From the NCBI GenBank assembly GCA_004563595.2, contig CP042461.1, positions 810,001 to 842,000 of the forward strand: 32,000 nucleotides of DNA, read 5' to 3'. Positions 27,515 to 28,168 of this stretch are shown here, piece after piece. The stretch's first letter is position 1, and each line of letters opens with the position of its first letter. The translations under genes and the position numbers were made by a program. The DNA comes from Candidatus Saccharimonadota bacterium. Its GTDB lineage: Bacteria > Patescibacteriota > Gracilibacteria > BD1-5 > UBA6164. The notes beneath the pieces were generated by a model, which made no database searches, was not told the DNA's origin, and worked only from the letters and a program-made list of their open reading frames with translations.

Positions 27515-27596
27515 ACTTAATTGGTCTTCATGATTTTTTTCATGAATCGACGCGAACTCCTCTTTAGATTTATCTGTAGAGGAGATTTTTTATTTT
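27515..27596 (+). ncRNA. Candidate ~80-nt small RNA, antisense to the mazF-like/hsdS intergenic part of the R-M operon transcript
   Basis: It starts about 7 nt after the consensus -10. Hairpin 1 pairs ttcatg (27527-27532) with catgaa (27541-27546). Hairpin 2 pairs ctcctct (27557-27563) with agaggag (27578-27584) and is followed by attttttatttt, giving an intrinsic terminator that is properly oriented only on the + strand. The 3' end overlaps the stop codon of the mazF-like gene (27590-27592). Confidence 0.45.
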
Positions 27597-28168
27597 ATTC
27601 AAAAAATCTGTTTAATTTTATTATCAATTTCATCATATAATGATGAAATATTCTCATCATTTTCTAAATTCTTTAATCTTCATATTTTATTTAATATTCT
27701 TTTTTTAGAAATAGATTTTAAATGTCTAACTTTCATTAAAGATTCTTTTTTAAGTTTATTATCTATATTTGGATGTATCACAATATCAAAACCATCTAAA
27801 TCTTTCTCTTGTTTATTTTTATCATACAATCAAGTCATTGGAATAACAAAAATATCAAAACCTCTATTGTGTCTGTTTGATTTATATATCAAAGAAGGTC
27901 TAATTCAATTTATTTCATTTCAAATATTTATTCAAAAATTCACATAATGAATATCATATTTCCTAAAATCTCTAGGATTTTCAGCTTGCTGATTTATTTT
28001 AATTTTTTCCTTAAAATTTTCTATATGATTTCCTAAATTATGAGATTTCCCTTCATTTCTTAATAAAAAATCCTCTCTAATAAAAAATTGGAAATTTTTA
28101 TAATAAAGTTTAGTTTTACTAAGAAACTCATTTACAATTAAATTAAAATCAATGTTTATATTTTTCAT
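27590..28168 (-). CDS. MazF/PemK-fold endoribonuclease-like toxin domain with an N-terminal extension of about 70 aa; no adjacent antitoxin gene; 192 aa
   Basis: The track ORF 27932..28168 reads through TGA to TAA 27590-27592; I listed every triplet. The core is KYDIHYVNFGINIGNEINGIRPSLIYKS....FDIFVIPMTG...ESLMKVRHLKSISKKRILNKIGRL. It follows the MazF pattern (E. coli MazF: GDLIWVDFDPTKGSEQAGHRPAVVLS...CLCVPCTT...ADQVKSIAWRAR..KKGTV). Confidence 0.75.

Follow-up and report, generated by a model that had tools for sequence, protein, structure and literature searches.

How is a MazF toxin held in check when no gene for a protein antitoxin stands beside it? MazF is a textbook type II toxin and, to our knowledge, its antidote is always a protein. 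The question is raised by a gene in a 32,000-nucleotide (nt) stretch of the genome of a Candidatus Saccharimonadota bacterium (assembly GCA_004563595.2, contig CP042461.1, positions 810,001 to 842,000 of the forward strand; this whole stretch is called the window below, and unlabelled coordinates refer to it). The genome is a single 1.34-Mb contig of 29% G+C, about 94% complete, and related contigs carry the labels Candidatus Gracilibacteria or Absconditabacterales. A first-pass annotation had described the gene as an orphan MazF/PemK-like toxin with a unique N-terminal extension, embedded in a restriction-modification (R-M) operon between structured RNA-like flanks, and had offered three routes of control: the extension as a fused cis-antitoxin, an RNA antitoxin, or the neighbouring R-M proteins. 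Here we compare the locus with its relatives. The comparison points to a small RNA (sRNA) gene, convergent with the toxin and conserved alongside it, as the candidate partner.

A long-form MazF gene and its missing protein partner

How the toxin is read depends on the genetic code. At 27590-28168 (minus strand), table 11 gives short open reading frame (ORF) pieces, and table 4 gives one frame with tryptophan at conserved glycine positions. Under table 25, in which TGA encodes glycine, the same interval is one frame of 192 amino acids (aa) with six TGA codons. The adjacent HsdM reads DPTCGSWS under table 4 and DPTCGSGS with TGA as glycine, where DPxCGSG is expected; HsdR reads TTWSWKT under table 4, and its GSGKT motif is recovered with TGA as glycine. 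Among the database translations in the family alignment, tryptophan and glycine swap within the same conserved glycine columns, and the NCBI record of one homolog is itself translated with TGA as glycine. Because of these three lines (R-M motifs, family columns, and NCBI record), we adopted code 25, the code of Gracilibacteria; the earlier glycine reading of TGA was right.

Residues 70-167 of the protein (27668-27961) match the Pfam family PemK_toxin (PF02452) with 48.3 bits (E 1.3e-12; cut-off 23.1). They are preceded by the N-terminal extension (aa 1-69; 27962-28168) and followed by a C-terminal helix (aa 177-189) and the stop codon (27590-27592), all on the minus strand. Phmmer against PDB sequences aligned Arg90 and Thr112 with the catalytic Arg25 and Thr48 of Staphylococcus aureus and Bacillus subtilis MazF, and also aligned the domain with Bacillus anthracis MazF; both residues are conserved across the family, Arg90 invariantly. 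An AlphaFold2 model, built from a 33-sequence alignment in which most sequences were re-translated with code 25, reached a pLDDT of 87.2 and a pTM of 0.78. The model begins with a beta-hairpin (3-13, 20-31), a short helix, and a long helix (39-59), which together make up the N-terminal 60 residues; the MazF domain and the C-terminal helix come next. Foldseek searches against the PDB returned MazF/Kid-type toxins only, the C-terminal domain matching S. aureus MazF (4mzp; TM-score 0.86, probability 1.00) and B. subtilis MazF (1ne8, TM-score 0.85; 4mdx), then MazF-mt1. The MazF/PemK assignment of the first-pass annotation thus holds by profile, by structure, and by the retained Arg90/Thr112 pair. 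By sequence and model, the gene encodes a MazF/PemK protein with an intact active site and predicted endoribonuclease activity. It is the sole PemK-family gene in the genome, and its product is a soluble protein of MazF fold, not a small hydrophobic peptide as in type I toxins.

No ORF of at least 35 aa is coupled to the window toxin on either side. We compared the flanks of about 30 such long-form genes with those of 20 short-form MazFs of the class. In 15 of these short forms, an ORF of 70-126 aa ends at most 10 nt before the toxin start; 11 of these 15 ORFs are mutually homologous and carry acidic C-terminal tails, and one matches RHH_1. Classical short MazFs with a coupled, acidic-tailed upstream antitoxin were seen at loci L064, L067, L070, L071, L074, and L020-L034. 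Among the long forms, by contrast, only one gene of about 30 has an ORF whose end lies within 10 nt before it, and this ORF resembles the 3' end of a longer, unrelated gene; the remaining small ORFs flanking long-form genes are singletons. Hence the absence of a MazE- or PemI-like ORF beside the toxin is confirmed, and it extends across the roughly 30 long-form loci. The two architectures coexist in the class, TGA-recoded genomes included.

The N-terminal extension is not unique, as had been thought, and is conserved throughout the whole long-form family. Sixteen proteins of about 190 aa cover the entire query at 54-75% identity, and the most conserved part of the family alignment is a stretch of the extension, HNLxNHIxNFKEKIKINQQ; in places, the extension is more strongly conserved than the MazF domain. 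An exhaustive search gathered 187 representatives, many of 160-220 aa, with matches beginning at query residues 20-50. Across 401 sampled genomes of the class, matches that reached the extension lay mostly in frames with several in-frame TGA codons and came from several families. Subfamily A has the full extension, and subfamily B (about 160-175 aa) has a helical extension with a shared motif, FLxWFxxKIxI. Judged from these sequences, the long-form subfamily is specific to TGA-recoded Gracilibacteria and Absconditabacteria. IMG/VR viral contigs yielded no relative of the toxin. In two genomes of the same family, a short-extension MazF adjoins the gene for isoleucyl-tRNA synthetase (L043, 10540-15573; L045, 11048-14200), which in L043 is an ORF of 1677 aa with large insertions.

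Opposite-strand sRNA genes beside long-form MazF

Downstream of the window toxin, and convergent with it, lies a predicted sRNA gene of a type that we named alpha (27509-27593, plus strand). It scores 86.5 bits (E 2e-18) against our R2 covariance model, the sole strong match in the genome, and has a fold z-score of -4.5. The predicted transcript (about 27515-27591) would start with single-stranded ACUUAAUUGGUC and continue with an extended hairpin (27521-27555), the invariant linker UCGACGCGAAC, and a terminator hairpin (27557-27584), after which the U-run overlaps the toxin stop codon. Its predicted promoter (27480-27508, plus strand), TTGACA-17 nt-TATAAT, is a perfect match (12/12), and only 5 such sites exist genome-wide. 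Three phased 11-nt direct repeats, AAAGTTTTGAC (27463-27500, plus strand), overlap the -35 box and may be a candidate operator for some regulator; the orthologous spacers of L076 and L078 lack these repeats, which are specific to this genome.

On the other side of the toxin, an sRNA gene of a second type, beta (28199-28267, plus strand), is divergent from the toxin start and convergent with hsdM. It scores 75.6 bits (E 1e-11) against the R1 model, the only significant match in the genome, and consists of 5' UUACUUGGAUGUAGC, a CUUCC-UC-GGAAG hairpin, and a terminator hairpin, bulged and capped by a UUCG loop, that runs into U7; the terminator ends about 4 nt short of the hsdM stop codon. The predicted beta promoter (28171-28198, plus strand; TTTACT-16 nt-TATAAT, 10/12) overlaps the ribosome-binding region of the toxin, its -35 box lying 3 nt from the toxin ATG. 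By both models, the two elements that flank the toxin are the only copies in the genome; weak matches at 198.8 kb fall on a bidirectional terminator of the ordinary kind that separates a pilin-like gene from ssb. In Rfam, only transfer-messenger RNA (tmRNA) passes the gathering score in the window, and nothing credible was found at E up to 10 on 27400-28350. The locus holds no tandem-repeat RNA array of the ToxI kind, the sRNA genes being single copies on the opposite strand.

The earlier impression of structured RNA-like flanks was borne out, both elements being members of a conserved, covarying sRNA gene family (65-85 nt). The alpha type joins a 5' motif, UACUUUAUUGGUC, to the invariant linker and follows the stop codon in orthologs at 74-75% protein identity; in homologs from quite different neighbourhoods, its hairpin stems are altered by compensatory substitutions. 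Over 10 alpha loci, 97.6% of alignment cells are paired, and 13 of 21 pairs are compensatory; none of 500 shuffles reached the observed score, and slid controls gave at most 0.165 against 0.544. The beta type has the 5' motif UUACUUAGAUGUAGC; over its 11 loci, pairing reaches 92.9% of cells, and 9 of 14 pairs are compensatory. In the sRNA stems, G.U pairs occupy 32 cells and A.C pairs 6, an excess that identifies the folded RNA strand as antisense to the toxin. In 24 of 26 elements, the model start is directly preceded by a -10 box, with TTGnnn 16-17 nt further upstream, and every element has a U-run after its 3' hairpin.

The linkage of these elements to long-form MazF is close. We called loci with covariance models, an earlier regular-expression and energy heuristic for promoters and terminators having been too strict (19/35 loci). 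Each of the 13 distinct alpha loci (70-94 bits), like each of 10 strong beta loci, is found on the opposite strand immediately past the stop codon of a long-form MazF gene, and no short-form MazF locus gave an alpha or beta match. At subfamily-B loci, an analogous antisense promoter with two covarying hairpins can be recognised by eye. Nearly every long-form MazF gene is followed by an opposite-strand sRNA gene, and intact long forms without one were seen only in one distant clade; of two extension-bearing members of a distant clade (P0169 and P0173), one has a convergent unit by eye and the other does not. On this comparative evidence, the elements are real genes with predicted promoter, terminator, strand, covariation, and linkage to long-form MazF, and we infer that they are transcribed.

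Searches that started from the RNA agreed with this, their matches falling mainly, though not exclusively, at long-form MazF genes. An R1 scan of 150 genomes of the class gave matches in five, the window's own genome included: these comprised one intact long MazF, one locus with only the last ten toxin codons left, an hsd operon with an NYN RNase (G140), and a 409-aa gene of unknown function beside RhuM and Rep (G054). A motif scan of 185,579 species genomes and the JGI metagenomes returned five further long MazF loci, two from the genome scan (one N-terminally truncated), one known, and two metagenomic, together with one internally deleted toxin with an intact sRNA, one hsd operon with DUF3800 cargo, and two orphan sRNA copies. 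Motif matches in Hominibacterium, Desulfobacteraceae, and Pelagibacteraceae scored 24-25 bits and were dismissed as chance. One orphan beta copy (L097, 2841-2909, plus strand) follows rplJ-rplL beside a 102-aa ORF with an antitoxin-like N terminus; the other (L094, 4424-4490, plus strand) is followed 700 nt downstream by a second copy, whose partner is an intact long MazF.

An intact sRNA is kept beside four broken toxin genes (L081, G043:C29, L099, and L091), and the types of decay are a premature stop, an internal deletion, or reduction to the last codons. Decayed long MazF genes were mapped at L081 (8001-8656), L083 (2290-3034), L099 (1301-1747), and L091 (3026-3449), with sRNAs of 69-72 bits. 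In the branch of P0009 and P0011 (L002, 8001-8636; L088, 529-1155), the toxin stop has been lost and 16-19 extra codons run through the sRNA complement, and toxin and sRNA genes overlap by about 70 nt.

Upstream copies of the sRNA are confined to loci with cargo inside an hsd operon, namely the window, L076, L079, and G140. The G140 slot (L084 = G140:C1:43500-49500, 1477-5765) reads hsdM, beta, NYN RNase, alpha-like sRNA, transmembrane protein, and hsdS. At L096 (1058-6722), the order is hsdM, DUF3800, beta sRNA, transmembrane protein, and hsdS. Such layouts suggest that cargo bounded by these RNA genes may be exchangeable in hsd operons.

Candidate modes of control

Of the three routes first proposed, the comparative data favour an RNA antitoxin, in that a conserved, covarying, antisense, and linked sRNA is now in hand; that this sRNA neutralises a toxic MazF is our inference, covering the toxicity as well as the neutralisation, and we regard it as evenly balanced. 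Within this reading, we tentatively favour a type I-like, cis-antisense action, itself somewhat doubtful, on three grounds: the genes are laid out as in 3'-overlapping type I loci, subfamily A has no sense terminator between toxin and sRNA gene, and the second sRNA copy is found exactly in those cases in which a polycistronic hsd operon encloses the cargo. With no terminator of its own before the sRNA gene, the subfamily A toxin transcript must traverse that gene. The read-through RNA and the sRNA would form a perfect duplex of about 80 bp, and this might expose the toxin cistron to RNase III-type cleavage and to decay. In the window, the beta sRNA would cover the hsdM-mazF spacer and alpha the 3' side of the toxin, and the two duplexes could excise the toxin cistron from the operon mRNA while hsdM and hsdS stay usable. 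Loss of the sRNA supply, through phage-induced transcription shut-off or loss of the island, would free the RNase, and the result might be abortive infection or addiction that backs up the R-M system.

Several observations weigh against the sRNA as antitoxin, or against its cis-antisense action. The beta sRNA also stands beside the NYN RNase (G140), DUF3800 (L096), and the 409-aa protein (G054), and orphan copies exist (L097 and L094b), so the sRNA is not specific to MazF and could be a general insulator or cassette boundary. The same RNA at NYN and DUF3800 cargo can also be read the other way, as an argument for a toxin-agnostic base-pairing mechanism. The strongly conserved single-stranded 5' motif, UUACUU..., would be superfluous in a pure cis-antisense RNA; we found no second, trans pairing site for it in the toxin mRNA (z about 0, 19 loci), nor a complementary site anywhere else in the genome. 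At some subfamily-B loci, a bidirectional terminator comes right after the stop codon and would prevent overlap with the sRNA. Finally, type I toxins are normally small membrane peptides and not RNases of 190 aa.

One alternative is control by the R-M proteins. As the first-pass annotation had it, the toxin gene is inside the R-M operon: it sits between hsdM (28272-29852, minus strand; Pfam N6_Mtase, 382 bits, and HsdM_N), a type I methyltransferase, and hsdS (26186-27412, minus strand; two stretches of Pfam Methylase_S), the specificity subunit. The two closest orthologous loci (L076 and L078/79) share this hsdM-toxin-hsdS arrangement, and the L076 HsdM is 90% identical. Nine or ten of about 24 long-form loci adjoin some R-M gene. 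These facts would fit a PrrC-like scheme in which HsdM/HsdS or the whole R-M complex restrains the nuclease until a phage anti-restriction factor frees it. However, the R-M systems next to long-form genes belong to unrelated types (I, IIG, and III): other long forms follow a type III mod/res pair or type IIG Eco57I-like enzymes, or stand beside other N6-methyltransferase or GmrSD genes. Homologs at 60-68% identity lie between housekeeping genes with no R-M nearby; non-R-M long forms are found between an ABC transporter and a hydrolase, after mnmA, or beside yceG or rmuC. By phmmer, HsdM, HsdS, and HsdR of the window had no match in 14 other long-form neighbourhoods, which rules out a conserved type I linkage, and Pfam finds no PrrC-type ATPase domain in the toxin. 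As in defence islands, the R-M linkage appears frequent but neither type-specific nor obligatory, and we consider PrrC-like control highly improbable as a family mechanism.

The remaining alternatives assign the extension or the flanks a different role. In a type III-like scheme, which we think unlikely, the sRNA would bind MazF as a pseudo-substrate or inhibitor, and the extension would be an extra RNA-binding surface that replaces MazE recognition. Extension and sRNA do co-occur, with two sRNA types and at many loci, and short forms have neither; the single-stranded 5' end is conserved, and its core UUACUU resembles MazF recognition motifs, of which U^ACAU, U^AC, and UU^ACUCA are known. The extension is polar and mildly basic rather than acidic, with many invariant Lys, Asn, His, and Gln residues, and the known type III toxins (ToxN) have a MazF/Kid-like fold. 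Yet the same sRNA type flanks NYN and DUF3800 cargo that has no such extension, a distant clade (L105) has the extension and no detectable sRNA, and a ToxI-style tandem-repeat precursor is missing. A fuller version, in which a PemK/MazF RNase with an N-terminal RNA-binding domain would be neutralised by a convergent, non-repeat sRNA through a UUACUU pseudo-substrate, and the sRNA family would serve as a portable antidote cassette for MazF, NYN, and DUF3800 docked in R-M operons of code-25 candidate phyla radiation bacteria, seems to us a long shot of similar weight. The extension might instead be a cis-acting, autoinhibitory domain, released by proteolysis or a phage trigger, with the sRNAs tuning expression or unrelated. 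This would account for a protein antitoxin missing family-wide; EzeT and CapRel are precedents for fused toxin-antitoxins, and the extension stands where MazE would be fused and, by the pTM of 0.78, is probably packed on the MazF domain in the model. Homology lends no support to the fused antitoxin of the first-pass annotation, however: the extension profile alone had no match in PDB, Pfam, or NCBIfam, and hhalign against the clade's own MazE-type antitoxins gave a probability of 0.5%, although the extension may still be regulatory. Moreover, the extension is basic or neutral, unlike the acidic MazF-binding tails of MazE, its conservation above that of the toxin domain is the opposite of what antitoxins typically show, and the tightly linked sRNA gene would be left unexplained. 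We therefore rate cis-autoinhibition as decidedly improbable. About as poorly placed is the idea that the flanks are antisense insulators, terminators, or boundaries of a cargo cassette, the MazF-like protein being otherwise restrained or a non-toxic, specialised RNase. The elements beside NYN and DUF3800 cargo in other hsd operons, the orphans, and the different cargo in the same beta/alpha-like slot of the window and G140 all speak for it. On the other side, a conserved promoter and strand-specific G.U pairs favour a transcribed RNA over a DNA site, linkage is overwhelmingly to one gene family, the RNA is kept beside broken toxin genes, and the catalytic residues of the toxin are intact.

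The hsd island and known toxin systems

The operon reads hsdM-mazF-hsdS-(pentapeptide/transmembrane)-hsdR. Its second embedded gene (24862-26247, minus strand; start codon uncertain) has a pentapeptide-repeat head and a multi-transmembrane part, and the restriction subunit gene, hsdR (21994-24834, minus strand), matches Pfam HSDR_N, SWI2_SNF2, T1R_D3-like, and EcoR124_C. PADLOC gave no match for the toxin or the pentapeptide/transmembrane gene. Three Gracilibacteria type I hsd operons with nuclease-type cargo and a beta sRNA each hold a multi-transmembrane gene (window, 24862-26247, minus strand; L084, 4037-4603; L096, 3359-4081), and these have no mutual similarity by Pfam. The 3' end of the tmRNA gene carries a left att-like repeat of 16 nt, ATTGGTGGAGCTAATG (29960-29975), with an exact copy 8.1 kb away at 21864-21879 and a third copy of 94% identity at 21322-21337, 542 nt beyond the second. 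Judging by these repeats, the whole hsd operon is enclosed in an ssrA island of about 8.1 kb, which a small second segment adjoins; no integrase lies within the bracketed island.

Gracilibacteria and Absconditabacteria have hardly, if at all, been brought into culture; their genetic code is an alternative one, and little is known of their regulation and phage defence. Our literature search, of incomplete coverage, turned up neither a MazF toxin paired with an RNA antitoxin nor a toxin-antitoxin study in Gracilibacteria. If the sRNA is indeed the antitoxin, one branch of MazF would have swapped MazE for a small RNA and gained an N-terminal domain, the boundary between type I, II, and III systems would be blurred, and the locus would be the first candidate toxin-antitoxin or abortive-infection module specific to these two groups. 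The two new, well-supported sRNA families offer a rare direct view of promoter and terminator usage in these bacteria. The operon-embedded form suggests that one cistron of a polycistronic defence operon might be silenced by antisense RNAs on both sides.

The system shares features with several known classes. With type II MazEF/PemIK modules, such as EndoA-EndoAI of B. subtilis and MazEF of S. aureus, it has in common the Pfam family, the fold, and the catalytic Arg/Thr pair, and it differs in having no MazE/PemI gene, an extra conserved N-terminal module of 70 aa, and a convergent sRNA partner. PrrC-EcoprrI and RloC likewise place an RNase gene among hsd genes, plausibly as a second line of defence; here, there is no ABC-ATPase or anticodon-nuclease domain, the hsd linkage is not conserved, and sRNA genes flank the toxin. 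Like EzeT and CapRel-SJ46, the toxin is one polypeptide with an added domain and lacks a protein antitoxin encoded separately, but the extension is without antitoxin similarity and a linked sRNA is present. The type III systems ToxIN, AbiQ-antiQ, and CptIN also pair a MazF/Kid-like RNase with an RNA in defence contexts. Their antitoxins consist of tandem repeats that precede the toxin gene on its own strand and are processed by the toxin, whereas a single structured sRNA on the opposite strand is found here, and ToxN, unlike the window toxin, is not a member of PF02452. The type I systems with a 3'-overlapping antisense RNA, txpA/RatA and bsrG/SR4 of B. subtilis, have the layout predicted here, a convergent sRNA with its own promoter and an intrinsic terminator at the 3' end of the toxin, and SymE/SymR and RalR/RalA illustrate that type I toxins can be nucleases. 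What sets the present loci apart from type I is the 192-aa RNase of the MazF family in place of a small membrane peptide, an sRNA terminator that abuts the ORF rather than overlapping it, a conserved sRNA 5' motif, and, when the toxin is operon-embedded, a second sRNA copy over the 5' spacer.

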